From an uncultured Desulfobacter sp. (GTDB lineage Bacteria; Desulfobacterota; Desulfobacteria; Desulfobacterales; Desulfobacteraceae), in the NCBI GenBank assembly GCA_963665095.1, contig OY762069.1, positions 4,800,001 through 4,864,000 of the forward strand: a stretch of 64,000 nt of DNA. Direction: 5' to 3'. The translations under genes and the position numbers were made by a program. Below are positions 19,240 through 42,666 of the stretch, in pieces (positions within the stretch are counted from its first letter, which is position 1; each line of letters begins with the position of its first letter). The notes under the pieces are model-generated. The model worked only from the letters and a program-made list of their open reading frames with translations, was not told the origin of the DNA and made no database searches.

Positions 19240-19983
19240 TTAGATGGTGATATTCACCTTATCTGCATATGGTATAAACATCCTGGTGCCGCCGCCCTCC
19301 ATAATGGCGCTGATCAGACTTTGGTTTTCCCGGACAATGATACCTGATGCACAGGTGACAGGGGTGCCTTGGTAACATTCCGGGGCCAGCGGGGTGGAGG
19401 GTCCCAGCACAGCCACATGTTGGCAGCTGGCCGCATGAACCAGGAGATCATCAAAGGTTTGATTGATAATGGAGGTAGCTGTGATCAGGGCCACATCACA
19501 CTCCGGCAGCCGGTCAGGAATGCTATCTGACGGATGAATGCCGGAAGATGCGTCCGGGTGCATGTCAAAGACCGTCAGCTGGGCCCCACGTTTTTTGATT
19601 ACCGGTACCAGGGGCTTGAATTCGCCCACCATGCCGACTTTTATGCCCGGTTCCAGATGCAGGTGGTCCAGGATATCCCCGGTGGCGGAAGGGGTTGCCC
19701 GCCGGCTGAATATCGCATTGGCAACCGCTGTACACACGCTGTTGGCAAGGGGGCCTTTCCCTGCGAAATCAAGCAGCTCAGATACCTTTGAGCCTGCCAG
19801 GGGGCGTTTGGGAAGGTTGTGGGTACAGTCCCCTTTACCGGGGCTCCCTCTGAATATATAGGCCACACCGGCAGCACCGTTTTCAAGTTCTGCGCAACAA
19901 TAGGCCAGGCCCACATAAACAGCCTTTACCGTCTCATTTCCACCCCAATTTCTGGCCTGTTCCGCCAGTTTTTCTATAAACAT
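19240..19983 (-). CDS. DUF364/DUF4213 (enolase-N-like + Rossmann-like) protein
   Basis: VYVGLAY, TAVANA, KVGMVGEF.P, ITATSIINQT, VLGPSTPL; start MFIEKL after RBS GAGGG (the ORF-track extension is repeat-derived). Confidence 0.85.
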   Translation of the reverse strand: MFIEKLAEQARNWGGNETVKAVYVGLAYCCAELENGAAGVAYIFRGSPGKGDCTHNLPKRPLAGSKVSELLDFAGKGPLANSVCTAVANAIFSRRATPSATGDILDHLHLEPGIKVGMVGEFKPLVPVIKKRGAQLTVFDMHPDASSGIHPSDSIPDRLPECDVALITATSIINQTFDDLLVHAASCQHVAVLGPSTPLAPECYQGTPVTCASGIIVRENQSLISAIMEGGGTRMFIPYADKVNITI

Positions 19984-20016
19984 GATGTGTTCCCTCTTAT
20001 TAGTCTGCGTATGGAA

Positions 20017-20141
20017 GTGTTTGGGCGAAGAGTTGCCCAGATGCAAAGTGCAGAAAAATTTGCAACCGGAGCAACCTCTCGGTTGTGAGGATTGCAGATT
20101 TTTCTGCAACGCCGCAGGTGGGTGAGTCTTTGTTCAAACAC
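20017..20141. mobile_element. Palindromic miniature element, copy 1
   Basis: GTGTTTGGGCG...GTTCAAACAC ends; internal CAGATGCAA and GCAACGCCGCAGGTGG shared with 38701 and 44286 copies. Confidence 0.85.
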
Positions 20142-20964
20142 CTTCTTTTCGCATGGTTAGATACCGTATTATAAGCAGGCCCAGCAGCACGCCGTACACA
20201 AGAAAAAATATCCGGGCCAAAGGATTAATGCTGTGGTGAATTTCCACCCCGATGCGGTCCGAGTCCTTGGCAATGAAAAAACCAGCCAGAAAGAAATAGT
20301 TTGATCCCACACGCACCGGCGACATCATTTTCAGCTCCGTTGCCGGTACAGTCTCGTCTGCGCCCTTATTCACAGGGCGTGTTGTTTTCGTTACCTGGAT
20401 ATGGGCCAGGTTTTTCTCCTTTGAGAACTTTTTTGCCGGGATGGCAAAGCTTTTCTTTTTCCGGCCCTTTCCGTTTTCCCGGATCAGGGAAAGGTCACTG
20501 ACAAAAGAGACATCTTTGACTGTCACGGTAAATTCGCCCATTACTGCGGACTGTCCCGGATAAAGCTTGATGGGCTGGTGACGCTCAATCATGGTCATGT
20601 CCATGGCATGGAGCAGGATCACCACAAGGGCTGTGATGTGGATCAGGGTCATCTGGATGGATCTGCGCCGTTTTTCTCCTTCATGGCCTTTAAGCTTGCC
20701 AAGGATCTTAATCTGGGAATAGGTGCAGCAGGCCGTATTGATGAAAAGACAGGCCCCCACGGCAAAAAAGATAAGCAGCCAGGTCGGCAGCACAAATGTT
20801 TCAGTGATAAGCCCTATACAGTGGCGCAGGTGGGTGGTGTTCATCTCCCGGAAAACGTTATAATAGTCATCCACCGAAGTAAGACCGCTGCCAACGCCAC
20901 AGATCAGAGCCAGCAAAGCAAAGAAAAGGTAACTGGCCTTTAGTGAAAAAAAGAACGATTTCAT
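20134..20964 (-). CDS. ResB/Ccs1 (CcsB)-like membrane protein
   Basis: Three N-terminal TM helices with LFINTACCT and LIHITALVVIL signatures, periplasmic beta-rich domain, C-terminal TM; start MKSFFF overlapping upstream stop. Confidence 0.6.
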   Translation of the reverse strand: MKSFFFSLKASYLFFALLALICGVGSGLTSVDDYYNVFREMNTTHLRHCIGLITETFVLPTWLLIFFAVGACLFINTACCTYSQIKILGKLKGHEGEKRRRSIQMTLIHITALVVILLHAMDMTMIERHQPIKLYPGQSAVMGEFTVTVKDVSFVSDLSLIRENGKGRKKKSFAIPAKKFSKEKNLAHIQVTKTTRPVNKGADETVPATELKMMSPVRVGSNYFFLAGFFIAKDSDRIGVEIHHSINPLARIFFLVYGVLLGLLIIRYLTMRKEGV

Positions 20965-21728
20965 ACCTGCACCACCTTGGAAAAGATCATACCCGAGGCC
21001 ACCAGTGCCAGGGGCAGAAACAGGGCAAAGGCCTGGGCTTTGGCCGATGAAAAAACAGACCGGGGAACATGAAGGGCCACCATGAACAGGACAAAGACCA
21101 TGGCGGAGAATAAAAAGTTGCCGCTCCAGCGCCAGGTGGTGCCCCATCCCATGAAGCCCCAGTAGCAGCCGGCAATTTCACCGCCCAGAAAAATCAGGGC
21201 TGCCAGCATGGCTGCCTGTTTGGCCTCTGCCGTTGCCTGGGGCTTAAAGGTGCCTTTCCCCCAGAGAATGTCAGGGGCGCTTCCCAGGGCAAACAGGGTC
21301 AGGCCCAAGCTCAAAGGCCTGGAGAGAAAAAACGCTTTGGCATAAATATAACTCATCATAAAGGTGTCATGGCGGAACTCTTCAGGCACCATGGACAAAA
21401 GAGCTAAAAGAACCAGAAAGACCCCGCTTGCCCGCAGCCGCAGGCTTTGGCGGCCACGATCTGTCTTCAGGCAGAACGACTGCCAGATGCACAGGATAAG
21501 TCCTGCAAAGGTGAAATTGGGTGCAATTCCTGAAAGAGATGTCAGGCCGTACGCAGACAGAAAAAAGAAAGACTGCATGATCCAGCCAAGCCCCACCACG
21601 GGCCAGGCCACAGCCGCCAGCCGGTTTTTTCCGGCCACAACCGCCAGTATCCCCAAGATCACATTCAGCCGGGCACACATAAGATAGCCGGTCATGGGAT
21701 CAGACCATATTGAAAGTTCACACATCAT
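20961..21728 (-). CDS. CcsA/ResC-like (WWD-domain) membrane protein, degenerate
   Basis: GCYWGFMGWGTTWRWSGN resembles GxxWAxxxWGxxWxWD; downstream ALH histidine; multiple TM helices. Confidence 0.65.
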   Translation of the reverse strand: MMCELSIWSDPMTGYLMCARLNVILGILAVVAGKNRLAAVAWPVVGLGWIMQSFFFLSAYGLTSLSGIAPNFTFAGLILCIWQSFCLKTDRGRQSLRLRASGVFLVLLALLSMVPEEFRHDTFMMSYIYAKAFFLSRPLSLGLTLFALGSAPDILWGKGTFKPQATAEAKQAAMLAALIFLGGEIAGCYWGFMGWGTTWRWSGNFLFSAMVFVLFMVALHVPRSVFSSAKAQAFALFLPLALVASGMIFSKVVQV

Positions 21729-23073
21729 GTTCCTCGTTGTTTAAAAATCGGTTAATCTGTTTTGCTGCATTCGGATCAGATACCCGGACAATCACCGGGT
21801 CGGCAAGGAGCCAGCGGCGGCAGACAGCTTCAATGAATTCCGTACGGACCACCCAGATGTGGCGCAAGGTTTTCACAGAGAGCAGCGGCGAAAGATACGG
21901 GGCAAAGTTCTTCCCCTTGAGTTCAAAACGCCCCACTTCATCCACAACCACACAATGGCGGAAACTGTTTTCCAAAGGATCCAGAGCGGTTCGGGCCAGG
22001 GCCATCCCCTGTTCATCAAAAAGAAAATGGCTGGTAGGGGTATTGTTGGCCCGCCGGGCAAAGGGGGCAGACTGCTTTGTGGCAAGGCAGTGCAGGTCAC
22101 TTTGAAACCGAAGTCCCTCTTTGAAAAATCCCGGGCAGGTAAATCCGCCGAAATCCAGATGGGGGTTCTCTTTGATCACCTGGTGGAGCAGGGTGGTTTT
22201 TCCCTGGCCTGATTCCCCTGTGAGCAGCAGCACCCGGCCCTTGAAATCCGGGTGGACAAAGGCGGGTACAAGGCCTGGGGGGCCAGGGCCCCGGCTCTGC
22301 CAGGCCGCCATGCCGTACAGGCGGCTGATGGCCGGGCCGGTCAGGGTTTCCTGTACCGGGCCTGAATCCAGAATCCGTCCCCTGTGAAGGAGCACGGCCC
22401 GGTCGGCAAACATCAGGGCATGGTTGGGGTCGTGAAGGCAGGCCACCACGCAGGAGTTGTGATCCTTTGTCAGGGCTTTGAGCCAGGCCAGCATCCGGAA
22501 ACGGTTGCTGTAGTCCAGGTGGTTGGTGGGTTCATCCAGGAAAATGATCTTCCGGGACTGCACCAGGGCCCTTGCCAGCAGCACCATCTGTTTTTCCCCG
22601 CCGGAAAGATCCGTATAGGTTCTTTGGGCCAGATGGGATATCTGCAACTCTTCAAGCACGGCCCGGGCAGCTGTTTCATCCTCGTTTCCCGGTGCCCCGA
22701 AACTGCCTAAAAATACGGTGCGGCCCATGACCACCACCTCAAGCACGGAAAAGGGAAACATGTCCTCATGCTCCTGGGGCACAAAGCTGACCCGCCGGGC
22801 AATATCCCTGCGGCCGGCGGAACCCGGGTCCAGTCCGCCCACAAGAAGGTGGGCGGCGCTGCAGGGCTTTAAGCCCAGAAGACAGGAGAGCAAGGTGCTT
22901 TTGCCTGCCCCGTTGCGGCCCAGAACCGCCACAAACTCACCTGAATAAAAATCAAGGCTGATCTCTTTGAGCACCTGTCTGCCGGCATAGGAAAAATTTA
23001 AATATTTACACGAGACCAAAGGGTCTTTCATGGGATTTCCCGGGAGCGTGTTCATGGGATCTGTCATGCCCAT
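21718..23073 (-). CDS. FecE/BtuD-type ABC ATPase fused to a C-terminal THEP1/DUF2478-like NTPase
   Basis: GRNGAGKST, LSGGEKQ, LDEPTNHLD; second P-loop GESGQGKTT and VVVDEVGRFE. Confidence 0.88.
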   Translation of the reverse strand: MGMTDPMNTLPGNPMKDPLVSCKYLNFSYAGRQVLKEISLDFYSGEFVAVLGRNGAGKSTLLSCLLGLKPCSAAHLLVGGLDPGSAGRRDIARRVSFVPQEHEDMFPFSVLEVVVMGRTVFLGSFGAPGNEDETAARAVLEELQISHLAQRTYTDLSGGEKQMVLLARALVQSRKIIFLDEPTNHLDYSNRFRMLAWLKALTKDHNSCVVACLHDPNHALMFADRAVLLHRGRILDSGPVQETLTGPAISRLYGMAAWQSRGPGPPGLVPAFVHPDFKGRVLLLTGESGQGKTTLLHQVIKENPHLDFGGFTCPGFFKEGLRFQSDLHCLATKQSAPFARRANNTPTSHFLFDEQGMALARTALDPLENSFRHCVVVDEVGRFELKGKNFAPYLSPLLSVKTLRHIWVVRTEFIEAVCRRWLLADPVIVRVSDPNAAKQINRFLNNEEHDV

Positions 23074-24119
23074 CCCCTGTTTTTGTTTTTATACAGAAGA
23101 AAGGCAAATACCGGCCCGCCGATAAGCGAGGTGATCACCCCTAACGGCAGTTCGGAACTTAGGACGGACCGTGCAATATCATCGGCCAGAACCAGAAAGC
23201 TTGCGCCCAGAAGGGCGGAGCAGGGGATGAGCAGGCGGTGGTTGGGGCCCAGGATGGTTCTTACGATGTGGGGGATTACCAGCCCCACCCAGGCGATCTG
23301 TCCGCAGGAGGCCACGCATACCGCCACCACAAAGGAGCTCACCCCGATGAGAAAGAGCCGCAGCCCTCCGGGATTTACCCCCAGGGCCCGGGCCGCGTCA
23401 TCCCCTAAGGAGAGAACATTAAGCCGGTACCGGTAGAGGTGGAACACGAGGTAACCGCCAATCACCGCAGGCAGGATCTGGATGACATCCGGCCATGAGG
23501 CACCTGACAGGGAGCCCATGACCCAGAACACAATGGCGGGCAACTGCCCCAAAGGGTCTGCCACGGTTTTTACAATCATGAAAAATGCATGGAACAGGGA
23601 GCCTGTGATCACACCGGTGAGTACCAGTACCAGCACCCGGGATGTTTTCACGGCCCGGGCCATGGCAAGGGCCATGGAGACGGCCGTAACCCCCATGATA
23701 AAAGAGAGCAGGCGGACAACGAAAAAAGAGGTGCCCGGGATGACAAGTCCCAGGGCCGCCCCAAAAGTACACCCGGCTGCCACACCTAAAATGTCCGGTG
23801 AGACCAGGGGATTTCTGAATAACCCCTGGTATACCGCCCCGGATACGGACAGACCCGCACCCACCAGCAGAGCCATGAGAATCCTGGGAAACCGGATGAG
23901 CATCAGGACCCGTTCCTGTTCATCCAAACCTTGATAACTGCCTGACAGGATATCTGTTAAAAGGCCTGGAAACCGGACAAGGGCGTTGAGCACATGGGAA
24001 AATGAAATCTCCATGCGCCCGGTAAAACAGGAGATAAAAGCGGCAGCAATAAGCACACCCAGAAAGATAAGAGACACCTTGAGCGCGGAGCTTGCGGGTT
24101 TGGTCCCAGGCCTGTTCAT
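23064..24119 (-). CDS. FecCD/BtuC family permease (importer 1)
   Basis: RFPRILMALLVGAGL, FRNPLVSPDILGV, IAWVGLVIPH. Confidence 0.95.
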   Translation of the reverse strand: MNRPGTKPASSALKVSLIFLGVLIAAAFISCFTGRMEISFSHVLNALVRFPGLLTDILSGSYQGLDEQERVLMLIRFPRILMALLVGAGLSVSGAVYQGLFRNPLVSPDILGVAAGCTFGAALGLVIPGTSFFVVRLLSFIMGVTAVSMALAMARAVKTSRVLVLVLTGVITGSLFHAFFMIVKTVADPLGQLPAIVFWVMGSLSGASWPDVIQILPAVIGGYLVFHLYRYRLNVLSLGDDAARALGVNPGGLRLFLIGVSSFVVAVCVASCGQIAWVGLVIPHIVRTILGPNHRLLIPCSALLGASFLVLADDIARSVLSSELPLGVITSLIGGPVFAFLLYKNKNRGWA

Positions 24120-25120
24120 TGATCAACAGATCCTGTAACTAAGGGATGTTTTCGGCTGAAACCTTTGCCGAATATGGTATCATACAGGCGATTGATTTCC
24201 GCCTGGACCGTATCTTTCGGGAACAGATCCGGGTGGGTGCAGCCGGCCATCCATAAAATGCCTGCCATGGCCAAAGGAGAGGGAAAATCCCAATAGGTTT
24301 GGGCCGGTACCTCGAAAATGGCCCCTTTTTTTACGGCACTAAGCGCGGAAAATTCCTGGTTTTCAAGTTTTTGTTTCTCCTGCCGGGCAATTCTGTCTGA
24401 GGCGATAATCACCTCCGGGTTCCAGGACAGCAGCTGTTCCCGGCTCACGGTGATGAAAAATCCGTGGGTGTTCTCAGACACATTGGTACCGCCGGCTATT
24501 TTGATCATTTCGTGTTGCAGCATATCCCCGGAAACCGTGGTGAGCAGGCGGGAACCGGCATAGTACACCTTTTTTCGGGGACGTTGTTTTAAAGTGTGGG
24601 TCAGCCTTGCCTCAATGGCCTCCATGGCGCTGATGACGGCATCGGTATGCTTTGTGCGGCCCGACGCCCGGCCAATGAGATCCAGGGACTGTTTAACACC
24701 TGTCATGGTTTCCGGCACGATCACAATGGCTGGAACCCCCATTTTCGTCAGATGGTCTGCCAGCCGGATACCGTCCTTTTGACCGTACATGATCACAAGG
24801 TCCGGTTTTAAAGAAAAAATGGTTTCAAGACTTAACCCGACCGAGCGGTTTCCCACAAGCACGGGCGGGTGGTCCGGATCAACCAGGGCTTCATAGATGG
24901 AGGCGGTGCCGTCCTTGTTGGATGCACCCACAAGGGCGTCGGAAAGATCCGCGCAAAGGGCGAAAAGGGAGGCAGGAATAAAGGTGGTGACAACGCGGTT
25001 GACCGGCTGGGGGATGGAAACCTTGCGGCCGGCCTGGTCCGTCACAACAACTTCCGCACTTAAGCAGACCGTCTGCCAGCAGCAAACCATGGAAAAGACA
25101 AAATAGAGAATTTTTTTCAT
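24116..25120 (-). CDS. Class III (helical backbone) substrate-binding protein (importer 1)
   Basis: Signal peptide, TDQAGRKV, LKPDLVI, WNPEVII, YWDFPSP. Confidence 0.92.
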   Translation of the reverse strand: MKKILYFVFSMVCCWQTVCLSAEVVVTDQAGRKVSIPQPVNRVVTTFIPASLFALCADLSDALVGASNKDGTASIYEALVDPDHPPVLVGNRSVGLSLETIFSLKPDLVIMYGQKDGIRLADHLTKMGVPAIVIVPETMTGVKQSLDLIGRASGRTKHTDAVISAMEAIEARLTHTLKQRPRKKVYYAGSRLLTTVSGDMLQHEMIKIAGGTNVSENTHGFFITVSREQLLSWNPEVIIASDRIARQEKQKLENQEFSALSAVKKGAIFEVPAQTYWDFPSPLAMAGILWMAGCTHPDLFPKDTVQAEINRLYDTIFGKGFSRKHPLVTGSVDQ

Positions 25121-25403: not shown

Positions 25404-25425
25404 TTTGACGTTTTTAAGCGTCAAA
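25404..25425. promoter_or_regulatory. Palindrome TTTGACG-N8-CGTCAAA, candidate operator
   Basis: Lies between a TTGACA at 25365 and the start of the rightward operon. Confidence 0.45.
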
Positions 25426-25464
25426 AGACGTTAATAAAAATAAAATTGCATTTTGGAAATAACT

Positions 25465-26262
25465 ATGACCACATTAGAGGTCAATCATCTCTATTTTAAT
25501 TACGACACTGCCAAGGTGTTAAAGGATGTCTCCTTTAACGCCGGGCCGGGAAAGGTTTTAGGCCTGCTTGGCCCCAATGCCTCGGGCAAAACCACCCTGT
25601 TTAAATGCATGAACGGAGTCCTTAACCCTGAAAAAGGCCATGTCAGCCTGTCCGGTCGGCCCATCGCGGCAATGTCCAGGAAAAATCTGTCCCGGCTCAT
25701 GGCGGTGGTGCCCCAGCAGACCGGGTCTGCGTTTTCGTTCACAGCCAGGGATATGGTGGTCATGGCCCGATCGGCGACGTTGTCCATGTGGCAGCGGCCG
25801 TCAAAAAAAGATTATGATGGTGCGGAGCAAGCCCTTGCGGACTTGGGGGCGGCAGGACTTTCATCGCGCATGTTCAGTGCCTTAAGCGGCGGCGAAAAAC
25901 AAATTGTTCTTCTGGCCCGGGCCATGTTTCAATCCCCGGCTGTTCTTCTTTTGGATGAGCCCACTGCCCATCTGGACTTTAAGAATCAGCATTTGATGCT
26001 TGATATGGTCAAAAGCGTGACCCTTAAGCAGGGCCTGACAACGGTTGTTACTTTGCATGATCCCAACCTTGCTTCGCGATACTGCGATGAAATTGTGATG
26101 ATTAAACAGGGACGGGTAATCGAATGCGGCCCTGTGAGGCATGTCCTCAGGGAGGATATTCTGGAGTCCGTGTACGGTATAAAAGTCATGGTGCAGAACC
26201 ACTGCCTTGGCAGGCACCTTGTCATTCCCCGGACAGATGCTGCCGGGGCCGTCATGTTTTAA
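25465..26262 (+). CDS. FecE/BtuD-type ABC ATPase (importer 2)
   Basis: GPNASGKTT, LSGGEKQ, LDEPTAHLD, LHDPNLA. Confidence 0.95.
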   Translation: MTTLEVNHLYFNYDTAKVLKDVSFNAGPGKVLGLLGPNASGKTTLFKCMNGVLNPEKGHVSLSGRPIAAMSRKNLSRLMAVVPQQTGSAFSFTARDMVVMARSATLSMWQRPSKKDYDGAEQALADLGAAGLSSRMFSALSGGEKQIVLLARAMFQSPAVLLLDEPTAHLDFKNQHLMLDMVKSVTLKQGLTTVVTLHDPNLASRYCDEIVMIKQGRVIECGPVRHVLREDILESVYGIKVMVQNHCLGRHLVIPRTDAAGAVMF

Positions 26263-26273
26263 GTGGAGACGGT

Positions 26274-27293
26274 GTGACTAAACAAACCCTCCTGTTTCCG
26301 TTGTTTTTCTTATGCTTGGGCTGCACTGTCGGGGTGGCCCTGTCCACGGGCAAATATCCCTTGGATCTTCCCACCCTGGGCCGGCTGATTTTTGGTGCCC
26401 TTGGTTTGAAAGAGCTGCCTGGGGATCTGGCCGGCCCCGGGCTTGTTCTCTGGTCCGTCCGGATGCCCAGGATCGTCATGGCGATCCTGGTGGGGGCAGG
26501 GCTGTCGGTTGCAGGCACCATGTTCCAGGGCCTGTTTAAGAACCCACTGGTATCGCCGGGAATCCTGGGTGTGACCTCCGGGGCCAACTTTGGTGCGGCC
26601 CTGGGATTGCTTTTCCTTGCCGGGAATGCCGTGGCCATCCAGGTGTCGGCCTTTTTCTGGGGCCTTGGTGCGGTATGGCTGACCTATGAGGTGGGCAAAC
26701 GGGGGGACCGGTCTGTCACAACCCTGGTTCTGGCCGGGGTCATTGTCTCTTCCCTTTTCATGGCCGGACTTTCCTATATCAAGTGTAAGGCCGATCCCTT
26801 GGGCCAACTCCCTGCCATTGTCTTCTGGACCATGGGCAGTTTCAACAGCGTCTCCTGGCAGGATGTGGCTGCCGGCGGAAGCCTGATCGCCGCAGGGCTG
26901 ATTGCCTCCTGTTTTTTTAGCTGGAGCCTTAACCCCATGGCCCTTGGGGAGGAGGAGGCGCTCTCTTTAGGGATTAATGTGGCAGGGCGCAGGGCTGTTT
27001 ATATTCTATTGGCCACCCTGATGGTATCTGCTGCCACAGCCCCCTGCGGCAGCATCGGGTGGGTGGGGCTTTTGGTCCCCCATATGGCCAGGATGCTGGT
27101 GGGGGCGCAGCACGAACGCCTGGTGCCCTTTGCAGGCATTCTGGGGGCGATTTTTATGCTGGTCATGGACACCATCGCCCGCATCCTGCCGGGCGGCGAG
27201 ATTCCTGTGGGAATATTAACCGCTGTGATTGGTGCCCCCTGTTTTGGGTTTCTTTTGATCCGGAACAGGACCGGTGTCTGGAATAACAAATAA
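26274..27293 (+). CDS. FecCD/BtuC family permease (importer 2)
   Basis: RMPRIVMAILVGAGL, FKNPLVSP, IGWVGLLVPH; GTG start after GGAG. Confidence 0.95.
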   Translation: MTKQTLLFPLFFLCLGCTVGVALSTGKYPLDLPTLGRLIFGALGLKELPGDLAGPGLVLWSVRMPRIVMAILVGAGLSVAGTMFQGLFKNPLVSPGILGVTSGANFGAALGLLFLAGNAVAIQVSAFFWGLGAVWLTYEVGKRGDRSVTTLVLAGVIVSSLFMAGLSYIKCKADPLGQLPAIVFWTMGSFNSVSWQDVAAGGSLIAAGLIASCFFSWSLNPMALGEEEALSLGINVAGRRAVYILLATLMVSAATAPCGSIGWVGLLVPHMARMLVGAQHERLVPFAGILGAIFMLVMDTIARILPGGEIPVGILTAVIGAPCFGFLLIRNRTGVWNNK

Positions 27294-27327
27294 TGAACTT
27301 TCCTGTATCAATTCCACGGAGATTTTT

Positions 27328-28563: not shown

Positions 28564-28599
28564 TATGTCCAAATAGACACATATGTCCAAACAGACACA
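28564..28599. promoter_or_regulatory. 18-bp tandem repeat TATGTCCAAA(T/C)AGACACA x2, each containing TGTC-N6-GACA
   Basis: Seen directly ~330 bp upstream of the TonB receptor gene. Confidence 0.6.
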
Positions 28600-28641
28600 G
28601 TGAGTTTTGAAAGCGTTGAAGATGACTCAGTGACGCCTGAC

Positions 28642-28695: not shown

Positions 28696-28929
28696 GACCG
28701 TCTTTGGCCTTTCATTAAAATAAAATTGTAGAAAAACGGTTTCCTTTGTCCGGTTTCTGCGTTGGAAGAAAATGTTAATCCTTAAAATCAAGTTCTGCAT
28801 TCCAAAGGGTTAAATTTCATCCGCCTTAAAATCAAACAAAAGCAATCGGTTTTCCAAGCAGATAAACAGGCAATGTTTGATTGCCGATAAGATCGCATTA
28901 TAAATTTTTAAGCAAGCATGGAGGAATGT

Positions 28930-34018: not shown

Positions 34019-34879
34019 ATGGAAAAGCTAACCGACTGGAAGAACCTGTGGCATGCGTTGTCTGAGATCCAGGACCGGTCTTTTACCCGGGAAAAGGAAG
34101 CTGCCACGAACGATGTCTGGAAACATAAGGCAAAGGAGTTCGACAAACTGGTGGAAGACCGATGGGCCAAACCAGATTCATCCAGGGATTTTCTCATCCG
34201 GAAATTAAAGGAGAATCCTGGCTCAACCCTGCTGGATATCGGTGCCGGAACCGGGAAGTGGTCACTGCTCTGTGCGCCCTGGGCAAAAAAGGTCACGGCC
34301 CTTGAACCTTCTTTGTCCATGCAGGCGGTACTCAAGGAAAAAATAGACAAGGACGGGGTGGACAATATCGAGATTGTCACGGAGTCCTGGCCGCCGGAAA
34401 AGAAGGATGTTCCGGATCAGAAAGAATTGGTGGAGCCCCATGATTTTATCCTTACCTCTCACTCCATGTACGGGGTCGGGGATTTTGAAGCCTTTATCAG
34501 GGCCATGAACCAGTATGCCGTAAAGGGCTGTATTATGGTGATGCGGGCCCCGCTTGCCGATGCCGTCATGGCCAAAGCCGCTTCCAGGGTATGGGGACAG
34601 CCCTATGACAGCCCTAATTTTCAAATCGCTTACAATATCCTGCTGGGCATGGATATCTATGCCGATGTGGTCTTTGAGGAAAAGGGATCATGGCAGGGCT
34701 GGCACAATGACTCTTTTGAGACGGCCCTGGATGAGTTGAAAAGCCGTCTGGACATTGTGGATGATTCGTCCCATGATGCGTTTTTGACCGGGCTTCTTGA
34801 AAAGAACCTGATCGTGGAACCGGATGGGGTCCGATGGCCTGCGGCCAACCGGTCGGCCCTGGTGTACTGGGAGGTTTGA
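34019..34879 (+). CDS. Class I SAM-dependent methyltransferase
   Basis: LLDIGAGTG, VTALEPS motifs; RBS GGAGG. Confidence 0.92.
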   Translation: MEKLTDWKNLWHALSEIQDRSFTREKEAATNDVWKHKAKEFDKLVEDRWAKPDSSRDFLIRKLKENPGSTLLDIGAGTGKWSLLCAPWAKKVTALEPSLSMQAVLKEKIDKDGVDNIEIVTESWPPEKKDVPDQKELVEPHDFILTSHSMYGVGDFEAFIRAMNQYAVKGCIMVMRAPLADAVMAKAASRVWGQPYDSPNFQIAYNILLGMDIYADVVFEEKGSWQGWHNDSFETALDELKSRLDIVDDSSHDAFLTGLLEKNLIVEPDGVRWPAANRSALVYWEV

Positions 34880-35898
34880 TGAGACGGACAGCCATTGTTT
34901 TCCTGTTTTGTATCTTCCTGCTAACCGTTTTATCCGGGTGCCGGTTTAATGAGGAAAAAACCGAAACCATTACCATTACCGACCAGATGGGACGAAAGGT
35001 AAAGATCCCTGCAAAGATTGAAAGAATCTGCGCCCTTCACCACTTTGGCGGCAAGATCGCCTATGCCTTAAAGCAGCAGCACCTGATGGTGGATACCGGT
35101 ATCTACGGCAGGGAGGCCGTGGCCTTGGGCGCCATTGACAGCGACTTTTCAGCCAAGCCCAACTTTTCCCAGGGACATGACTATAACATTGAAGGGCTGT
35201 TGAACCTGGGTCCCCAGGTGGTTTTTGCAACGCCTGCGTCCAGCCCGGCAGATGTGGCGGTGTTTACCAATGCCGGTGTTCCAGTGGTGGGTGTTGCAGG
35301 GGAAACCTTTGAACAAAGTTTTGAGGCGGTACGGCTGATGGGCAATGTGCTGCACTGTGAAGAAAATGCAAAAATCTATATTGATGCCTGCACCGGCCTG
35401 CTTGACATGGTCAAAACGCGCCTGGAAAAAAGAGAGGGGCCACCGGTAAAGGTGTTGTTTGCCGGCCCCATGAGTATCTATTCGGCTGCCACCGGCAGCA
35501 TGCTGCAGACAAAGATCCTGGAGTTGTCCGGTGCCGTAAATGTGGCCAAAGAGTTGCAAGGATTCTGGGCCGATGTCTCCCCTGAGCAGGTGGCGGCCTG
35601 GAATCCGGATGTGGTCTTTTTAGGCTCTTCCCTGGAGACCTACGGCAGGGCGCATATTTATGAAAACCCCCACTTTAAAACGGTTGCAGCCATTCAAAAT
35701 AAACGGGTCTACACCTTTCCCTCCAGCGTGGGGTGGTGGGATTATCCGGCACCCCACTGCGTACTCGGTGTTGTCTGGTCGGCCAAAACGCTCTACCCGG
35801 ACCTGTTTTCCGATGTGGATATGATGGCGGTGGCCAATGAATTTTATCTGAAGTTTGTGGGACACAGCTTTGAAGAGATGGGGGGACGACTGGAGTGA
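34879..35898 (+). CDS. Class III substrate-binding lipoprotein (importer 4)
   Basis: Lipobox LSGC, TDQMGRKV, EQVAAWNPDVVF, WWDYPAP. Confidence 0.92.
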   Translation: MRRTAIVFLFCIFLLTVLSGCRFNEEKTETITITDQMGRKVKIPAKIERICALHHFGGKIAYALKQQHLMVDTGIYGREAVALGAIDSDFSAKPNFSQGHDYNIEGLLNLGPQVVFATPASSPADVAVFTNAGVPVVGVAGETFEQSFEAVRLMGNVLHCEENAKIYIDACTGLLDMVKTRLEKREGPPVKVLFAGPMSIYSAATGSMLQTKILELSGAVNVAKELQGFWADVSPEQVAAWNPDVVFLGSSLETYGRAHIYENPHFKTVAAIQNKRVYTFPSSVGWWDYPAPHCVLGVVWSAKTLYPDLFSDVDMMAVANEFYLKFVGHSFEEMGGRLE

Positions 35899-36911
35899 AA
35901 AGATCGGCCCTTCTCATTGCCCTGGCCTTTCCGGTGGTAATCTTTATCTGTCTTTCCACCGGGCGGTATCCCATTGCGGTTGGAAAAATACCCGGTCTGA
36001 TTTTGGCAGGTGTCACAGGGGAGCGGCCTTCGGGGATCTCTTCGTCGGAACTGATGATTTTCTGGAATATCCGGGTGCCCAGGATCATATTAAGCATCAT
36101 GATTGGAGCCGGGATTTCAACGGCCGGGGCCGTGTTTCAGGCGTTGTTCCGCAACCCTCTGGCCGCACCGGACATCCTGGGGGTTACGGCGGGTTCCTGC
36201 TTTGGGGCGGCGGTGGTGATCATGTTTCTTGTGCCGGCTGCCTGGCTGATCCAGGGATTTGCCTTTGGATTCGGCATTCTGGCGGTGACCCTGGCCTACT
36301 TTCTGGCCTTTTTCAGCCGGGACAAATCCCCGTCGGTTCTGGTGATCACAGGAATTGTGATTACAGCGGTGTTCCAGGCAGGGCTCTCCTTTATCATGTA
36401 CCTTGCCAATCCCTATGACCAGCTGGCCCAAATCGTGTTCTGGACCATGGGCAGTTTTCATACGGCTTCCTGGGAAAAGATCCAGGCCACAGCCCCCATC
36501 CTGATATCCGGGGTGATTCTTCTCTCACTTTTTTCATGGCGGCTGAACATCATGACCCAGAACCAGGAGGATGCCATGGCCATGGGGGTGAATGTGTTGC
36601 GCTGGCGGATTTTTTATGTGCTTGCTTCCACCCTGATGGTGGCCTGCTCTGTGGCGTCTGTGGGGGCAGTGGCATGGGTGGGGCTTATTGTTCCCCATAT
36701 TGCAAGGTATCTGGCCGGCCCGGAACACAGCCGGCTTATTCCGGTGACCGCGGCCCTTGGCGGATTGTTCCTGCTGATCATGGATTCTGTGGCACGAAGC
36801 ATCCTCTTGTCTGAAATCCCCATCTCCATTGTCACCTCTATTTTTGGGGCGCCGTTTTTAGGGTATCTGGTGATCCGGGCCGGAAAGGAGCGGTATGAAT
36901 CTTTCGGTTAA
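35895..36911 (+). CDS. FecCD/BtuC family permease (importer 4)
   Basis: IRVPRII, FRNPLAAPDILGV, VAWVGLIVPHIAR. Confidence 0.95.
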   Translation: MKRSALLIALAFPVVIFICLSTGRYPIAVGKIPGLILAGVTGERPSGISSSELMIFWNIRVPRIILSIMIGAGISTAGAVFQALFRNPLAAPDILGVTAGSCFGAAVVIMFLVPAAWLIQGFAFGFGILAVTLAYFLAFFSRDKSPSVLVITGIVITAVFQAGLSFIMYLANPYDQLAQIVFWTMGSFHTASWEKIQATAPILISGVILLSLFSWRLNIMTQNQEDAMAMGVNVLRWRIFYVLASTLMVACSVASVGAVAWVGLIVPHIARYLAGPEHSRLIPVTAALGGLFLLIMDSVARSILLSEIPISIVTSIFGAPFLGYLVIRAGKERYESFG

Positions 36912-37704
36912 AAATCTTTGTGCCGGTTATGGCAAAAGATCGGTGCTTAAGGATATCAGTTTTTCCATTCCGGAGGGGAAAATCTGCGCGCTCATGGGTC
37001 CCAACGGGTCGGGCAAAACCACGTTGCTTCGGTGTATCAACGGGGTGATCCCGTTGAAGAACGGTACCATTGAGATCATGGGGCAGAATATCAGCACCTT
37101 GAACCGCTTGAAAATCGCCCGGCTGATATCAGTGGTTCCCCAGGTCAGCTTTTCGCCGTTCTCCTTTTCATGTATGGACATGGTGCTCATGTCCGGAGCG
37201 TCCCGGATGAAAGCCTGGGGTACCCCTGGGGTTGAAGAAAAGGAAAAGGCCTTAAAGATACTTGAGGAGTGCGGTATTCGTCATCTGGCGGATCGTGCCT
37301 TTAACAATTTGTCCGGCGGTGAGCGCCAGCTGGTGATGCTCGGCCGGGGGCTTTTCCAGGATGCCCCGGTGATGCTCTTGGATGAACCCAACACCCATCT
37401 TGATTTTGCCAACCAGCACCATATCATGGGGCTGATCAGGGCCATGGTGGAAAAACATTCCCTCACGGTGCTGATTACCCTGCATGACCCCAATCTGACC
37501 CATTATTACTGCGATGAGGTGATCATGATAAAAGAGGGCAAGGTGGCGGCCCAGGGCCCGACCCGGACTACCATGACCGATCAGGCTTTGCGCCGGGTGC
37601 TTGGGGATAATATCCAGACCGATATTACTCAGAAAGGGGTTTTTGTGGTGACGCCAAAGTATGTTCATGCCGGTGTCTCCAAACCCCATGAGGTGGAGTT
37701 ATGA
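36895..37704 (+). CDS. FecE/BtuD-type ABC ATPase (importer 4)
   Basis: GPNGSGKTT, LSGGERQ, LDEPNTHLD. Confidence 0.95.
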   Translation: MNLSVKNLCAGYGKRSVLKDISFSIPEGKICALMGPNGSGKTTLLRCINGVIPLKNGTIEIMGQNISTLNRLKIARLISVVPQVSFSPFSFSCMDMVLMSGASRMKAWGTPGVEEKEKALKILEECGIRHLADRAFNNLSGGERQLVMLGRGLFQDAPVMLLDEPNTHLDFANQHHIMGLIRAMVEKHSLTVLITLHDPNLTHYYCDEVIMIKEGKVAAQGPTRTTMTDQALRRVLGDNIQTDITQKGVFVVTPKYVHAGVSKPHEVEL

Positions 37705-38708
37705 AATGCAATTATTGTGAACGAAAATGCGATCTTGGCAGGGGAAACAGTTTCTGCGGCATGTATCAGGAGACCAACGGCGCTGTGGCGGAGGTCTATC
37801 CGGATCTCTGGTGCACCTATACGGCCTCCCGGGTGGAATCCGTACCCTTCTACCATGCCTATCCCGGCTCCCGTTCCATGATCATCGGAACGGCCGGATG
37901 CAATTTCAGGTGCCGATACTGCGCCAACGGGTTCATTGCCTGCCAGGACCCTTCCGGACTGCAGGATCTGATGTACCATTTTCCTGGGGAAAAACTGGTG
38001 GAGATGGCCCAAAAGCTCGGGTGCCACAATATTGTCTTCAACGTCAACGAACCTGCCGTCTCGCTGCCAAGCCTTGAGCGGGTCAAGGTTTATGCAGACA
38101 GGGCCGGTATCCCCATGGGGTGTCTTACCAACGGGTATACCACAAAGGAATCCACACAACTCCTGGCAGACATCTTTTCTTTTGTCCACGTTGGGCTCAA
38201 AGGCTTTTCCGATGATTTTTACAAAAAATATGTCGGGGTGCCTTCTGTGGAACCGGTTTTAAGAAATATCCGGGATCTGGCCCGAAGATGTCATGTGGAG
38301 GTGGCATTCCCGGTCATTGAGAATGTGAACGACCGGGATCTTCCCGAGGTGGCCTCATTTATTTCAGAAATCCGCCGGGATATTCCCTGGCATGTGTTCC
38401 GGCTGTTGCCCGAACACCAGATGAAGACAGCGGCATACCCTAATATTGAGCGGATCAGTGAAGTGCTGGCATCCTGCAAAGACCACCTTGACTATATCTA
38501 TTTCCATAATTTTGTGGGGTCTGAATGGGTGAATACCTTGTGCCCGTCCTGCGGGGCGGTTGCTGTTAAGCGGTTCAGCCTGGGGTGTTCCGGGGATCAG
38601 CTCGACCAATTCCTGGCCCGGGACAATGCCTGTCCTGCCTGCGGTACAAAGATAGCCATGCTGGGGACCAAGGTGGCCTGGGACGCCGGACGGGAACTTG
38701 GTGTTTGA
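37701..38708 (+). CDS. Radical SAM enzyme, AmmeMemoRadiSam/PflA-like family
   Basis: CNFRCRYC (CxxxCxxC), N-terminal CNYCERKC...C, PFYHAYPGS, C-terminal CPSCG...CPACG. Confidence 0.9.
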   Translation: MKCNYCERKCDLGRGNSFCGMYQETNGAVAEVYPDLWCTYTASRVESVPFYHAYPGSRSMIIGTAGCNFRCRYCANGFIACQDPSGLQDLMYHFPGEKLVEMAQKLGCHNIVFNVNEPAVSLPSLERVKVYADRAGIPMGCLTNGYTTKESTQLLADIFSFVHVGLKGFSDDFYKKYVGVPSVEPVLRNIRDLARRCHVEVAFPVIENVNDRDLPEVASFISEIRRDIPWHVFRLLPEHQMKTAAYPNIERISEVLASCKDHLDYIYFHNFVGSEWVNTLCPSCGAVAVKRFSLGCSGDQLDQFLARDNACPACGTKIAMLGTKVAWDAGRELGV

Positions 38709-38840
38709 ACGAAAAGTCACCCACCTGCGGCGTTGCTGCACAAATCTACCAAATCATATAATCGGGCCTCACGTACTGAAGTACGCTCCGGTTTTAGATT
38801 TGCTTGCGCCTTGCATCTGGGCAACTTTTCGTCCAAACAC
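38701..38840. mobile_element. Palindromic miniature element, copy 2
   Basis: GTGTTTGAACGAAAAGT...ACTTTTCGTCCAAACAC ends; internal CGTACTGAAGTACG palindrome. Confidence 0.85.
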
Positions 38841-39040: not shown

Positions 39041-39349
39041 ATGGCTTTTTATGGTTTAACGGACGAAGCAATTGCCACAGAGATTGGCCGGCGGCTGAAA
39101 ACGCTGCGGCTGAATAAAAATTACAGCCAGGAGGAGATGATCGAAAAGACCGGATTGTCCATCAAGGCGATCCGAAATGCGGAGAAGGGGAAAAGCACGT
39201 TGGCAACTTACATTGCTGTTTTACGGGCGTTAAATGCCCTTGATGCCCTGGAGAATTTCATCCCTGAGACACGGATCAGCCCGTTGCAGCTGGCTAAAAT
39301 GAATGGCAAACAGCGGTTAAAAGCATCGGGAAAAAGGAGTGATAGTTGA
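39041..39349 (+). CDS. hipB: XRE-family HTH antitoxin (HipB-like)
   Basis: IGRRLKTLRLNKNYSQEEM..TGLS...IRNAEKG; overlaps hipA start. Confidence 0.85.
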   Translation: MAFYGLTDEAIATEIGRRLKTLRLNKNYSQEEMIEKTGLSIKAIRNAEKGKSTLATYIAVLRALNALDALENFIPETRISPLQLAKMNGKQRLKASGKRSDS

Positions 39350-40671
39350 GGCCTGTTAAAACCGCTTTTGTAAAATTGTGGGGGGATACGGTCGGTGCTG
39401 TGGCCTGGGAAGAGGGGCAGTTGTGCGCGGAATTTGAATATGACCCGGCCTTTTTAAAAAAGGGGTTGGATCTATCTCCTGTTTTTATGGGGCTTGAAGA
39501 GGCGATCAGATCTCCGAGATTTTCCTTCCCTTCCATTGATCCTCTGACCTTCCATGGATTGCCGGGATTGCTGGCTGCAAGTCTGCCGGACAAGTTCGGT
39601 AACAAAATGATTGATGCCTGGCTGACACGGCATGGCCGCAGCCCTATGTCTTTTAATGCAGTTGAGCGCCTTTGCTATATCGGATCCCGGGGGATGGGTG
39701 CCCTGGAGTTTGAACCGCAGTTAAGCTCCAGGAAACTAAACCGGACAATTGATGTAGACGTTGACGGCCTTATGGAACTGGTTCAGGACGTTTTGACAAA
39801 AAGAACTGCGCTGGATCTCCGGTTGGACAAAAATGACCCGGATAAAGAAAAAGCCGAGGCCTTGTTAAATATTTTAAGGGTTGGTACCTCTGCCGGCGGC
39901 GCGGTTCCCAAGGCAATTATCGCCATGAATGATGAAAAGCATATTATTTCCGGGCAGTCGGATATTCCTGAAGGGTACGACCACTGGATTCTGAAGTTTG
40001 ACGGTATTTCAGAAGAGAATCCAGATAGCTTCGGCCGATCTTTTGATGACGGCCGGGTGGAATATGCCTATTACCTGATGGCCCAAGATGCAGGGATCGA
40101 TATGATGCCGTGCGATTTATGGGAGGAGAATGGCCGCGCCCATTTTCTCACCAGACGGTTTGACCGGGTGGGCAATAAAAAAATTCATGTGCTCTCCTTA
40201 GCCTGCATGGGACATTTCGGCTGGAATCCGGTGGGAACGGTGGGATATGAAGATGCCTTCTGGGTCATGAGAGAGTTAAGGCTGCCGTACAAAAGCCAGG
40301 AACAGCAGTTCCGAAGAATGGTTTTCAATGCACTATCCCGCAACCTGGATGATCACACAAAAAATATCAGCTATATGATGGATACCGACGGCATCTGGCA
40401 ACTCACCCCTGCCTATGACATCACCTTTTCCCTGGATTCTGCCGAGATTTTGGGTAACCGGCACAAGATGAAAATCAACGGGAAAGCCAGGGATTTTACC
40501 AGAGAAGATTTTTTGAACACCGGGAAGAAAATGGGGATCAAAAGGGCGGGCCTGATTGTTGATCAGATCATTGATGTGATTCGTCAATGGCCTGATTATG
40601 CTAAAACGTCAGGGGTTCGGTCCAAGGTGGCAGACCATGTGGGCCGGATGCATCTGGTGGATCTGGATTGA
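39346..40671 (+). CDS. hipA: HipA-family serine/threonine kinase toxin
   Basis: SLPDKFGN, GTSAGGAVPKA, RRFDR, RNLDDHTKN, LTPAYD. Confidence 0.93.
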   Translation: MRPVKTAFVKLWGDTVGAVAWEEGQLCAEFEYDPAFLKKGLDLSPVFMGLEEAIRSPRFSFPSIDPLTFHGLPGLLAASLPDKFGNKMIDAWLTRHGRSPMSFNAVERLCYIGSRGMGALEFEPQLSSRKLNRTIDVDVDGLMELVQDVLTKRTALDLRLDKNDPDKEKAEALLNILRVGTSAGGAVPKAIIAMNDEKHIISGQSDIPEGYDHWILKFDGISEENPDSFGRSFDDGRVEYAYYLMAQDAGIDMMPCDLWEENGRAHFLTRRFDRVGNKKIHVLSLACMGHFGWNPVGTVGYEDAFWVMRELRLPYKSQEQQFRRMVFNALSRNLDDHTKNISYMMDTDGIWQLTPAYDITFSLDSAEILGNRHKMKINGKARDFTREDFLNTGKKMGIKRAGLIVDQIIDVIRQWPDYAKTSGVRSKVADHVGRMHLVDLD

Positions 40672-40693
40672 TTTATGAAGAAGGGGACCTTGT

Positions 40694-41908
40694 ATGAGCC
40701 TTGCAATTATTGATGCCAGAGAGTGGCAGAACCGGTTTGATCTTGAAACAGGCCGGAAAAGCGGACATGACAGTGGTGCTGCGCAGATGCTCAGCCAGGT
40801 GTTAAGTCGTCACCCATACCCTGGGGACATGGACGAAAGGGCCAACCAGTGGGTCTCCGAAACGGCTCTGGATCTGATGGAGCAGTATGAGCCGGATCTG
40901 GTCTGTTTAAGCTATGTTCAGCAGTTTTTTGCCAACCGCCACTTCAGGCATTCAAAGGATGAACAGGCACACATGTTTTCAACAGCCATGGCCGAGGCTG
41001 AAAGGTTTATTGAAATTTCAGGTTACACCCCGGTATATGTCAGCAACGGCGGCATGGTGGCCCAGCAGGGGGATATCGACCTGTCCGGCCTGGACGGCCT
41101 TGCTCTGTCCTCCAACTGGTCGGCCCGGTACTGCGGCCTGCATCGGCCCAGTGCAAAGGATCTGGATTATATCCGTTCGATTAGGATCAATGGTGGCAAG
41201 ATCAGTGGTGGCAAGGCCAATGGAACCGACCCCATTGAACGGATTGTTTCAAAATCAGAGTGGATTGATCTGTTCAAAGCGGCCCAGCCCGACCTTGACA
41301 TGTGCGAGGATCAGCGGCTTCTACCAGACTATCTTGTGATTGCAAAACAGGGCTTTTCATTCAAGGCCCTTGGCACCACTTTGCGAAAGCCTGTGAACAT
41401 CCCGGCCCACAACTTTGAGGTCCCGGTGTACACTCCTTTGGGAGCCGTTGGAGATATCAGGGATATAAGGCCTTTGATCCTTGAAAATATAAAAGATACA
41501 AAAATCGCCCTGATCCTTTTGGAAGGGCTTGAGCTGTCCAGCTTTCCCTCCGGGGCCTTTCTGTGCAGCAACTCGGTTGACTGGTTCTGTCACGAATCCG
41601 GAGATTCCTTTTACCTGACGCTTTCCACAGGAAAACACCAGCCCTTTGTCTATCCCACGGGATTTCGCTATTTTGACCGGGATGAGGAAAATATTCAGTT
41701 TCCTTTTTCCGGTTATCTGACCTCGATCCCGGAAAATACACTGGCCATGGATATCCCTCAAAAAAGCATTGCCGTGGGCAACCGCAGCATGTTTACCCAC
41801 ATGATGTTCGGTGCAGACATCGCCATTGAATGCTTTGCACGAAATCTGTTCAATCAGGGACTGATGGGTGTTGTCCACCGGGAAAAAGGGTTGGGGGTCA
41901 GGTCTTGA
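40694..41908 (+). CDS. Hypothetical protein, remote alkaline-phosphatase/phosphodiesterase-like fold
   Basis: Long ORF with RBS; NQWV..TALDL....PDLVCLSY, YVSNGGM and IALILLEGL segments recall the AlkP superfamily (weak). Confidence 0.55.
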   Translation: MSLAIIDAREWQNRFDLETGRKSGHDSGAAQMLSQVLSRHPYPGDMDERANQWVSETALDLMEQYEPDLVCLSYVQQFFANRHFRHSKDEQAHMFSTAMAEAERFIEISGYTPVYVSNGGMVAQQGDIDLSGLDGLALSSNWSARYCGLHRPSAKDLDYIRSIRINGGKISGGKANGTDPIERIVSKSEWIDLFKAAQPDLDMCEDQRLLPDYLVIAKQGFSFKALGTTLRKPVNIPAHNFEVPVYTPLGAVGDIRDIRPLILENIKDTKIALILLEGLELSSFPSGAFLCSNSVDWFCHESGDSFYLTLSTGKHQPFVYPTGFRYFDRDEENIQFPFSGYLTSIPENTLAMDIPQKSIAVGNRSMFTHMMFGADIAIECFARNLFNQGLMGVVHREKGLGVRS

Positions 41909-41935
41909 ATTGTCATTTGTTAAGACCTGATCCCC
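41893..41935. repeat. REP-like palindrome GGGGTCAGGTCTT...AAGACCTGATCCCC
   Basis: Inverted arms seen directly; contains the stop codon of the upstream ORF. Confidence 0.7.
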
Positions 41936-41994
41936 GACATTAGGCCCCCCGACTTTAGACCAACGAGAACGAAGCACACTTCTCAAACCAGAAT

Positions 41995-42666
41995 ATGAAA
42001 GGTAAAAATCACATGACCACAGACAATCCGTATGCAGATAAAGAAAAAGACCTTGAAACCGCCATTGCCATGGATAAAATCGCCAAGGGAATATTTGCCC
42101 CGATTTACCCGCTCCTGGCCGAACAGATCGTTGCGACCCACGGCATCACCAGCGGAATCTGCGTTGAAATCGGTACAGGTCCCGGCCCTTTGGCCATTGC
42201 CCTGGCTAAAATTACGGACCTGGAAATATATGCCCTGGACCAGTCTGAACATGCTGTGGGGTTTGCTAAAAACAATGCAGCGGACCAGGGTGTGGCAGGC
42301 CAGATAAATTTTATTCGGAAAGATGTGGTTTCCATGCCGTTCGAGGATGACTATGCCGACCTGATCGTTTCCCGGGGGTCTCTTTTTTTCTGGCCGGATT
42401 TAACTGCGGCCTTCAACGAGATATTCCGGATTCTTAAACCAGGGGGAAAAACCCATATCGGCGGGGGATTTGGCAACCATGAGGTCAAAAACAAAATTTT
42501 TGAAGCCATGGCAAAAAAGGATGGCAATTTTGCCCGGAAAGTCGGCAGCCGCATGGGGCCAGAAAACCTGGCCCGGTTCAAGGCCGCACTGAATGACTCC
42601 CTGGTGGAAAATTACGAGATCAGTGAGTCTGATGCAGGGTTGTGGATCCACATTTCAAAGCCATAA
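41995..42666 (+). CDS. Class I SAM-dependent methyltransferase (UbiE/Methyltransf_11-like)
   Basis: VEIGTGPG, ALDQS, MPFEDDYADLIVSRGS, RILKPGG. Confidence 0.93.
   Translation: MKGKNHMTTDNPYADKEKDLETAIAMDKIAKGIFAPIYPLLAEQIVATHGITSGICVEIGTGPGPLAIALAKITDLEIYALDQSEHAVGFAKNNAADQGVAGQINFIRKDVVSMPFEDDYADLIVSRGSLFFWPDLTAAFNEIFRILKPGGKTHIGGGFGNHEVKNKIFEAMAKKDGNFARKVGSRMGPENLARFKAALNDSLVENYEISESDAGLWIHISKP

Follow-up and report, generated by a model that had tools for sequence, protein, structure and literature searches.

A conserved radical SAM enzyme-X404 pair within a TonB/ABC uptake cassette beside nifV in an uncultured Desulfobacter sp.: a candidate system for complexed molybdenum or tungsten

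Introduction

An island of about 23 kb that combines importers with enzymes lies directly beside the nitrogenase genes of an uncultured Desulfobacter sp. (contig OY762069.1), which raises the questions of what is taken up, how the cargo is processed, and whether nitrogen fixation has any part in this. The island occupies positions 19240..42666 of the window, by which we mean the whole stretch of 64,000 nucleotides that was analyzed; positions below are those of the window unless a genome position is named. Listing of open reading frames (ORFs) and family scans confirmed the gene inventory of the original prediction, which had been made for this stretch from its sequence: four binding proteins (Peripla_BP_2; SBP1 to SBP4), four FecCD permeases, four ATP-binding cassette (ABC) ATPases, one of which is fused to NTPase_1, one TonB receptor, two S-adenosylmethionine (SAM) methyltransferases (MT1 and MT2), a radical SAM protein (rSAM), a DUF364 protein and a 404-amino-acid protein (X404). 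That prediction had made two larger claims. The first, that the island is an uncharacterised cassette of uptake plus enzymes, is borne out by a core of rSAM and X404 conserved in relatives; the second, that the cassette serves diazotrophy, did not hold.

The new part is an unstudied rSAM-X404 enzyme pair, and the known part is metal-regulated TonB/ABC uptake. To our knowledge, the known routes of molybdenum and tungsten (Mo/W) uptake take the free oxyanion. Judging from gene content, from the constant pairing of rSAM with X404 and their fusion in some clusters, and from the Mo/W neighbors and regulatory marks of relatives, we lean toward the view that the cassette imports complexed Mo/W via TonB and MolA-like type II importers, with rSAM and X404 forming one cytoplasmic unit for breaking or remodeling the ligand. 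If true, this would add both a way of taking up complexed Mo/W and a new radical SAM reaction; the gain for nitrogenase biology would be little, because the nif adjacency is not conserved.

rSAM and X404 form the conserved core of the cassette

X404 (40694..41908, plus strand) has 441 homologs at 90% clustering. A scan of GTDB found 136 relatives of the locus, and all locus counts given here use the best 80 of these 136, which come from 77 genomes. Carriers of the 80 loci belong to the Desulfobacterota, Acidobacteriota, Bacillota and others, and the pair is carried by cultured Sporomusa, Desulfovibrio and Desulfuromonas strains; Desulfobacula and Geobacter are further carriers. An ortholog of rSAM (37701..38708, plus strand), 52 to 74% identical, stands immediately upstream of X404 in all 80 loci, with a gap of 3 to 109 bases in 79 of them, and L061 was confirmed from its ORFs. 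The two genes are fused in 7/135 representative clusters, plus one degenerate case. By this comparison of gene neighborhoods rSAM and X404 are the conserved core, and the cassette is real and old.

FecCD-type parts accompany the core in 61/80 loci and TonB in 35/80, and homologs of MT1 (34019..34879, plus strand), MT2 (41995..42666, plus strand) and DUF364 (by blastp) occur in 30/80, 20/80 and 22/80, respectively. A CDA-fold deaminase with a signal-peptide-like start is present in 25/80 loci (tblastn). The order permease4-ATPase4-rSAM-X404 recurs in 37/80 loci, and SBP4-permease4-ATPase4 (34879..37704, plus strand) is, on gene order, the importer most tightly linked to the core. The SBP1 unit accompanies the cassette in L021, L022 and L127, and orthologs of the TonB receptor (28918..30969, plus strand; family scans), 47 to 63% identical, stand first in the cassette of close relatives. 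Coupling of enzymes to transporters, as had been proposed, is visible here in the overlapping stop and start codons of MT1/SBP4 and ATPase4/rSAM.

A full-text literature search found no description of the rSAM-X404 pair in the text accessible to it; the tables or supplements on the TaoR, TunR and MolA regulons may list these genes. In the sole other carrier of the genus (L131 in genome G019, 6283-8468), the rSAM frame continues into the first half of X404; the remaining part of X404 was not found at this locus, which is possibly a broken copy.

Predicted fold and conserved residues of X404 and rSAM

Neither Pfam, applied to X404, its halves and 40 homologs, nor NCBIfam, applied to X404, gave a significant match, and the PDB likewise yielded none, whether searched by sequence with the X404 profile or rSAM, or with the X404 model by Foldseek (no match at E<=0.001). 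The predicted model itself has a pLDDT of 89.6 and a pTM of 0.91, and its top 8 matches by VIA-align are all members of the alkaline phosphatase (AlkP) superfamily, with PhnA (1EI6) best (Z 9.4, root mean square deviation 3.9, 216 residues aligned), followed by the nucleotide pyrophosphatase/phosphodiesterase (NPP) proteins ENPP6, ENPP4, ENPP7 and Xac NPP (Z 8.6 to 7.8). Neighbors of X404 in the ESM Atlas carry Phosphodiest (score 0.92). The predicted fold of X404 is of the AlkP/NPP type. Residues 1-268 of the model align to residues 135-407 of PhnA, and relative to AlkP/NPP the order of X404 is likely circularly permuted; the evidence for this lies in the structural ranges, because hhalign, run with the two halves of X404 against an alignment of four NPP sequences, gave the swapped register that agrees with a permutation but no significant score (E 0.22 and 0.15).

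X404 resembles PhnA and NPP/ENPP in the fold of its predicted model but differs from them in its residues as well as in its probable permutation. When its alignment was mapped by motifs that we take to be those of AlkP, position 303, the position of the Thr nucleophile, proved to be Gly in 109/120 homologs, the D..H and DH zinc-ligand motifs were absent, and of the usual AlkP set only E277 was retained. Invariant among close homologs are E277, E301, H369, E379 and C380; the H369/E379/C380 patch is new in X404, and its His and Glu-Cys are retained in most distant homologs. A model of the anaerobic sulfatase maturase type, for which the motif is CxP/AxR, was also considered and rejected: the invariant Cys reads CFAR and maps away from the nucleophile position.

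rSAM matches PF04055 with 74 bits (cut-off 29.5) and has an invariant CxxxCxxC motif (C67/C71/C74) plus ten more conserved Cys residues. Its best NCBIfam match is AmmeMemoRadiSam (TIGR04337), over the full length (E 2e-34, 119 bits) but below the cut-off of 220. At the level of sequence rSAM is distantly like AmmeMemoRadiSam/activase proteins, from which it differs in being partnered with X404, with no frequent AMMECR1 or Memo neighbor in the clusters scanned.

Transporters and the likely class of ligand

The island importers have the layout of MolABC, that is, a class III binding protein, a BtuC-fold permease and an ATPase, and they are non-identical, as had been noted (24 to 26% pairwise identity among SBP1 to SBP4). 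Four FecCD systems are less unusual here than they might seem, because the genome holds 19 FecCD permeases. MolA is among the second to fourth PDB matches of all four binding proteins (third-best for SBP1, E 4e-20; second-best for SBP2, E 1e-18, and for SBP4, E 1e-24), and we take it to be the only top match with a characterised ligand. The placement of the binding proteins had been set in advance as a check on the prediction, and they are nearer to MolA and to uncharacterised structures than to BtuF, heme or siderophore proteins, which rank far below MolA for every one of them. SBP4 matches motifs of MolA in part (LHHF/LQHQ and WWDYPAP/AWGYPMP), and the WGYP motif of MolA reads WDYP, WDFP, WSHF or WDSM in the island proteins. 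MolBC is described as a molybdate importer of type II that works with a class III binding protein (excerpt of PMC4245157). MolABC of Haemophilus influenzae (HI1472/1471/1470; PDB 3PSA/3PSH) shares with the island the type II importer and the class III binding protein; the differences are low identity, an altered WGYP motif, and the presence in the island of enzymes and a TonB receptor beside four importers.

The cargo could instead be a standard ligand, whether iron, heme, nickel or corrinoid, that is modified by rSAM-X404, in which case the Mo/W marks of relatives would reflect clustering of trace-metal genes. For the permeases and ATPases the highest scores do come from BtuC, heme and F420-0 models, all under cut-off, the TonB receptor exceeds a broad siderophore-receptor cut-off (228.9 versus 223.5), and nickel-binding CeuE-type structures are the next PDB matches of SBP4 (E 3e-11); there is also a CcsA-like pair in this island, and relatives have multiheme cytochromes in 11/80 loci and tetrapyrrole-methylase domains in 8/80. 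Against this stand the rank of BtuF and heme proteins far below MolA, and the absence of a cobalamin riboswitch, by Rfam, from the window and from 21/21 loci scanned, and of a Fur box from the island. Both absences had been noted before, and Rfam found no riboswitch of any kind in the window; the island likewise showed neither a Fur nor a ModE box by consensus sequences that we take to be the accepted ones. On the BtuF and BtuB models the binding proteins reach at most 64 of 234 bits and the TonB receptor 157 of 600, short of a corrinoid assignment. Given, in addition, a promoter repeat common with modA-tupA and molybdenum cofactor (Moco) riboswitches in relatives, both described below, we regard a standard ligand as fairly unlikely.

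Molybdenum and tungsten marks in related loci

Neighbors of the MoeA, ModA or MOT1 type occur in 12/80 loci (one match being weak), and Mo/W-type neighbors in 35/80 once FmdE and TP-methylase/Oxidored_molyb are counted. In L032 and L061, modABC lies 1 to 260 bases upstream of rSAM, and in L059 two genes upstream, with exbBD in between. The Moco riboswitch RF01055 was sought by cmscan in 21/80 loci and with an nhmmer profile in all 80: it stands directly before rSAM in L082 (60.2 bits) and before modABC-rSAM-X404 in L061 (E 6e-26), and an ambiguous candidate was found in L072.

A second mark is a 10-bp direct repeat, TGGTTATWWT, which precedes TTGAC in 11/11 promoters of close relatives examined; training of the motif omitted L135 (little upstream DNA), L119 (a distant paralog with no matching promoter) and loci beyond the closest relatives. 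Two held-out modA-tupA promoters that stand beside a regulator with HTH_17 and periplasmic-binding-protein (PBP) domains scored 16.2 and 14.1, versus a maximum of 13.7 in 397 null windows (shuffle p 0 and 0.0005), and matches of at least 14 bits were found in 5/30 regulator loci versus 0/20 control loci. The HTH_17-PBP regulator is present in 12/13 closest carriers, with extra copies 2 to 12 kb from X404 in three genomes. An HTH-17 domain joined to a PBP-like domain is the architecture of TaoR (excerpt of PMC11980592), a tungstate-responsive regulator (excerpt of PMC12327845). The relatives resemble the TaoR regulon in having such a protein beside modA-tupA and, as a candidate operator, a direct repeat common to both operons; the present genome differs in having neither regulator nor repeat.

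A link of the cassette to Mo/W is likely. The marks of the relatives would also fit MolABC-like uptake of plain molybdate or tungstate, with rSAM-X404 acting apart from it, under common regulation, in the cytoplasmic maturation of a Mo/W enzyme or cofactor. The MolA match with its aligned motifs speaks for such an arrangement, as do the 19/80 loci in which the pair has no FecCD part, its position alone behind the Moco riboswitch in L082, and the 3 loci in which modABC precedes it. However, uptake of a small oxyanion would hardly call for a TonB receptor with ExbBD, for between two and four distinct binding proteins, for coupled methyltransferases, or for a deaminase whose start resembles a signal peptide; in the WGYP motif, the Gly of MolA is replaced by Asp in SBP4. 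We judge this arrangement quite unlikely.

A proposed route for complexed molybdenum or tungsten

Because the cassette combines TonB and an exported deaminase with several binding proteins and with coupled methyltransferases, the cargo is probably larger than an oxyanion. In the uptake of complexed Mo/W that we favor, a scarce Mo/W complex (an organic chelate, a thiometalate-type species or a pterin cofactor) would cross the outer membrane through the TonB receptor and enter the cytoplasm by way of SBP4-permease4-ATPase4 and the sister importers, the methyltransferases might modify the ligand, and rSAM and X404, acting as one unit, would cleave or remodel it so that the metal or cofactor enters the Moe/Mod pool. 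Sulfate reducers, syntrophs and acetogens need Mo/W enzymes, yet their habitats are ones in which sulfide converts molybdate to thiomolybdate (excerpt of PMC11484787).

One version of this route, which we hold to be unlikely in this specific form, is salvage by anaerobic bacteria of an intact Mo/W pterin cofactor (e.g., the guanine dinucleotide form) from sulfidic surroundings by a dedicated TonB/ABC route. Here the periplasmic deaminase, a metallophosphoesterase, rSAM and the permuted NPP-fold protein would trim or remodel the cofactor, and MoeA would reload it; if true, this would be the Moco counterpart of corrinoid salvage.

Several findings weigh against the uptake of complexed Mo/W. The structures that best match the binding proteins in the PDB (4hn9 and 4ovk) bear only a generic binding-protein name, at low identity; in X404 the canonical AlkP nucleophile and Zn ligands are missing. 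MoeA, ModA or MOT1 was absent from the available stretch of 68/80 loci. Of the 19 carrier genomes with RF01055 matches, 17 list none near the cassette (about 50 candidates were scored per genome), and the Moco riboswitch is therefore not a general mark of the cassette. The model of the repeat was trained on related promoters, 25/30 regulator loci have no strong repeat, and binding of the regulator to it is only putative. The share of genomes with a TupA-like gene, 36/39 carriers versus 26/40 background genomes (none above the curated cut-off), speaks for a Mo/W link, but the comparison was not taxon-matched and kin are not independent in it (the search used 38 of the 50 locus genomes described below, a choice made by the limits of the tools and without regard to any feature). 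In the organism studied here, finally, RF01055 is absent from the window and the genome, the repeat is absent from the island, and the HTH_17-PBP regulator and a TupA-like gene are absent from the genome, whose own modA promoter has no such repeat (score -3.0). Mo/W control is thus shown for relatives only.

Adjacency to nitrogenase genes

The stop codon of MT2 (42666) and that of nifV (42687) are 20 bases apart, exactly as had been noted, and because the two units are convergent they are not co-transcribed. No nif cluster was found in any of the 80 homologous loci, the sole exception being one 31% LeuA-like match; downstream DNA extends at least 5 kb in 57 of the loci and about 10 kb in 48. 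For nifK and riboswitch searches, 50 of the 77 locus genomes were used, a number set by the limits of the tools, with no feature of the genomes guiding the choice. nifK is present in 25/50 of these carrier genomes (20 above cut-off and 5 just below), at a distance from X404 of 0.25 to 2.4 Mb in six single-chromosome genomes and 92 kb in one metagenome-assembled genome, and otherwise on another contig. Among the closest carriers it is not enriched (3/13, with a fourth partial, versus 9/40 background genomes across the order). Genomes of the genus Desulfobacter have nifV in 22/24 cases and X404 in 1/24, that closed X404 genome being without nifK, and the cassette was found in 0/20 nifV flanks (17 genus genomes), the 3' flanks of nifV being varied across the genus. 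The comparison of gene neighborhoods and profiles that the original prediction had proposed thus gave no linkage to nif, an outcome that the prediction itself had named as refuting it, and the nitrogenase link of the cassette fails: placement beside nif is not common to any related locus examined.

Some observations do favor a cassette dedicated to N2 fixation, which would supply Mo or Fe chelates for the iron-molybdenum cofactor and would account for the adjacency of nifV: nifK occurs in half of the carrier genomes searched, three other FecCD loci of this genome (FecCD/TonB cassettes) adjoin nifH/nifD-like genes, and a Mo scavenger would aid nitrogenase as one among several Mo users. In Methanosarcina acetivorans, promoters bound by the Mo sensor ModE lie near nitrogenase genes in the vnf/anf cluster, one belonging to Fe ABC genes grouped with nifV and another to a radical SAM gene beside anfH (excerpt of PMC12327845); that system differs in being archaeal, in having no TonB and in its alternative nitrogenases. 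Set against the counts for the related loci, the closest carriers and the genus, these observations leave a dedicated nitrogenase function very unlikely. The prediction had also noted that modABC is missing; this is correct for the window, but the genome has modABC at 5,558,253-5,560,515.

In genus genomes G005, G016 and G021, three to four nifV copies each lie at separate sites with unrelated flanks, which suggests a mobile or duplicated nif operon. Five more nifH-like genes are present in the genome studied here (C1 ~208 kb, ~4.99 Mb, ~6.13 Mb, 257 kb and 3.52 Mb), some of them partnered by distant nifD-like genes; the genome also has a second nifB-like gene, at 163 kb.

Probable rearrangement and remaining features of the locus

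The right unit had been read as uninterrupted, and its gene calls were otherwise right; it is in fact interrupted, because a repeat resembling a miniature inverted-repeat transposable element (MITE; copy 2 in the window, 38701..38840, no strand, left edge of the insertion) and a hipB-hipA toxin-antitoxin pair (39041..40671, plus strand; Pfam HTH_31, Couple_hipA and HipA_C), both overlooked, separate rSAM from X404 (38701-40671). The GC content of the insert is 0.47 versus 0.54 and 0.51 in the flanking genes, and hipBA was found in 0/80 homologous loci; on these comparisons the hipBA pair is an insertion into an old cassette. Assembled contigs of three public runs each connect hipBA, X404, MT2 and nifV, and the contigs of all three stop at the MITE, so that the rSAM-to-hipB join is not independently bridged; run X6 covers 38817-44500 and leaves the left part uncovered, which proves nothing. 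Of the 77 genomic sites of the MITE-like element (about 140 bp), three are in the window (20017-20141, 38701-38840 and 44285-44411), and further repeat families at 19003-19104 and 19163-19245 border the left edge of the island.

A copy of MT2 at genome position 6,051,704, 1.2 Mb away (86% nucleotide identity over 695 bp, 90% at the amino acid level), heads an SBP-permease-ATPase-rSAM2 series (C1:6,051,704-6,057,069), and the same order follows MT2 in relative L004. From this gene order, the right end of the cassette has likely been rearranged in this genome, and its position beside nifV is likely the outcome of a recent rearrangement; the copy of the cassette in this genome may be decaying or rewired. 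rSAM2 is a 582-amino-acid paralog of rSAM whose C-terminal part resembles a binding protein. The deaminase of the cassette stands alone elsewhere in this genome (C1:2,311,867-2,312,517), 69% identical to the L012 copy and with a signal-peptide-like start.

The left unit, on the minus strand, begins with SBP1 (24116..25120), FecCD permease 1 (23064..24119) and the ATPase 1-NTPase_1 fusion (21718..23073), all from family scans, and continues with what had been called a CcsBA-like pair. For one member this was upheld in part: the divergent CcsA-like cytochrome c assembly protein (20961..21728) reaches a Pfam E value of only 0.056, and its ESM Atlas neighbors carry PF01578 (score 0.93). The other, a CcsB/ResB-like membrane protein (20134..20964), has no family match, and a homolog was found in 2/80 related loci. 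In many relatives a multiheme cytochrome (760 to 810 amino acids) or a diheme protein with a GEGP motif lies 3' of the cassette (L007, L008, L012, L015, L019 and L020; L030, L060 and L068), and these cytochromes may be tied to the CcsA-like pair. The unit ends with a DUF364/DUF4213 putative heavy-metal chelation protein (19240..19983; Pfam PF04016, E 3e-39), whose start is most likely at 19983 and not that of a longer ORF, because the longer ORF reads into MITE-like copy 1 (20017..20141, no strand).

The divergent promoter region contains a palindrome, TTTGACG-N8-CGTCAAA (25404..25425, no strand), which is its sole exact copy in the genome. On the plus strand follow ATPase 2, permease 2 and SBP2 (25453..28431; family scan), and, 5' of the TonB receptor, tandem TGTC-N6-GACA boxes (28565..28600, no strand), the sole exact tandem in the genome. 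Control of these boxes by TunR/ModE was considered; the only TOBE match of the genome is a 98-amino-acid frame. SBP3, permease 3 and ATPase 3 (31001..33907, plus strand; family scan and PDB search) stand between the TonB receptor and MT1.

Upstream of the nif operon, the window contains a three-gene split glutamate synthase-like cluster (56607-61678). Just beyond the end of the window, about 14 kb from nifH, lie moeA and moeA-PBP genes (C1:4,867,420-4,870,673), and at C1:5,550,000-5,560,515 modABC and a divergent HTH-MoeA-PBP regulator adjoin a cobalt chelatase-like/corrinoid ABC cluster.

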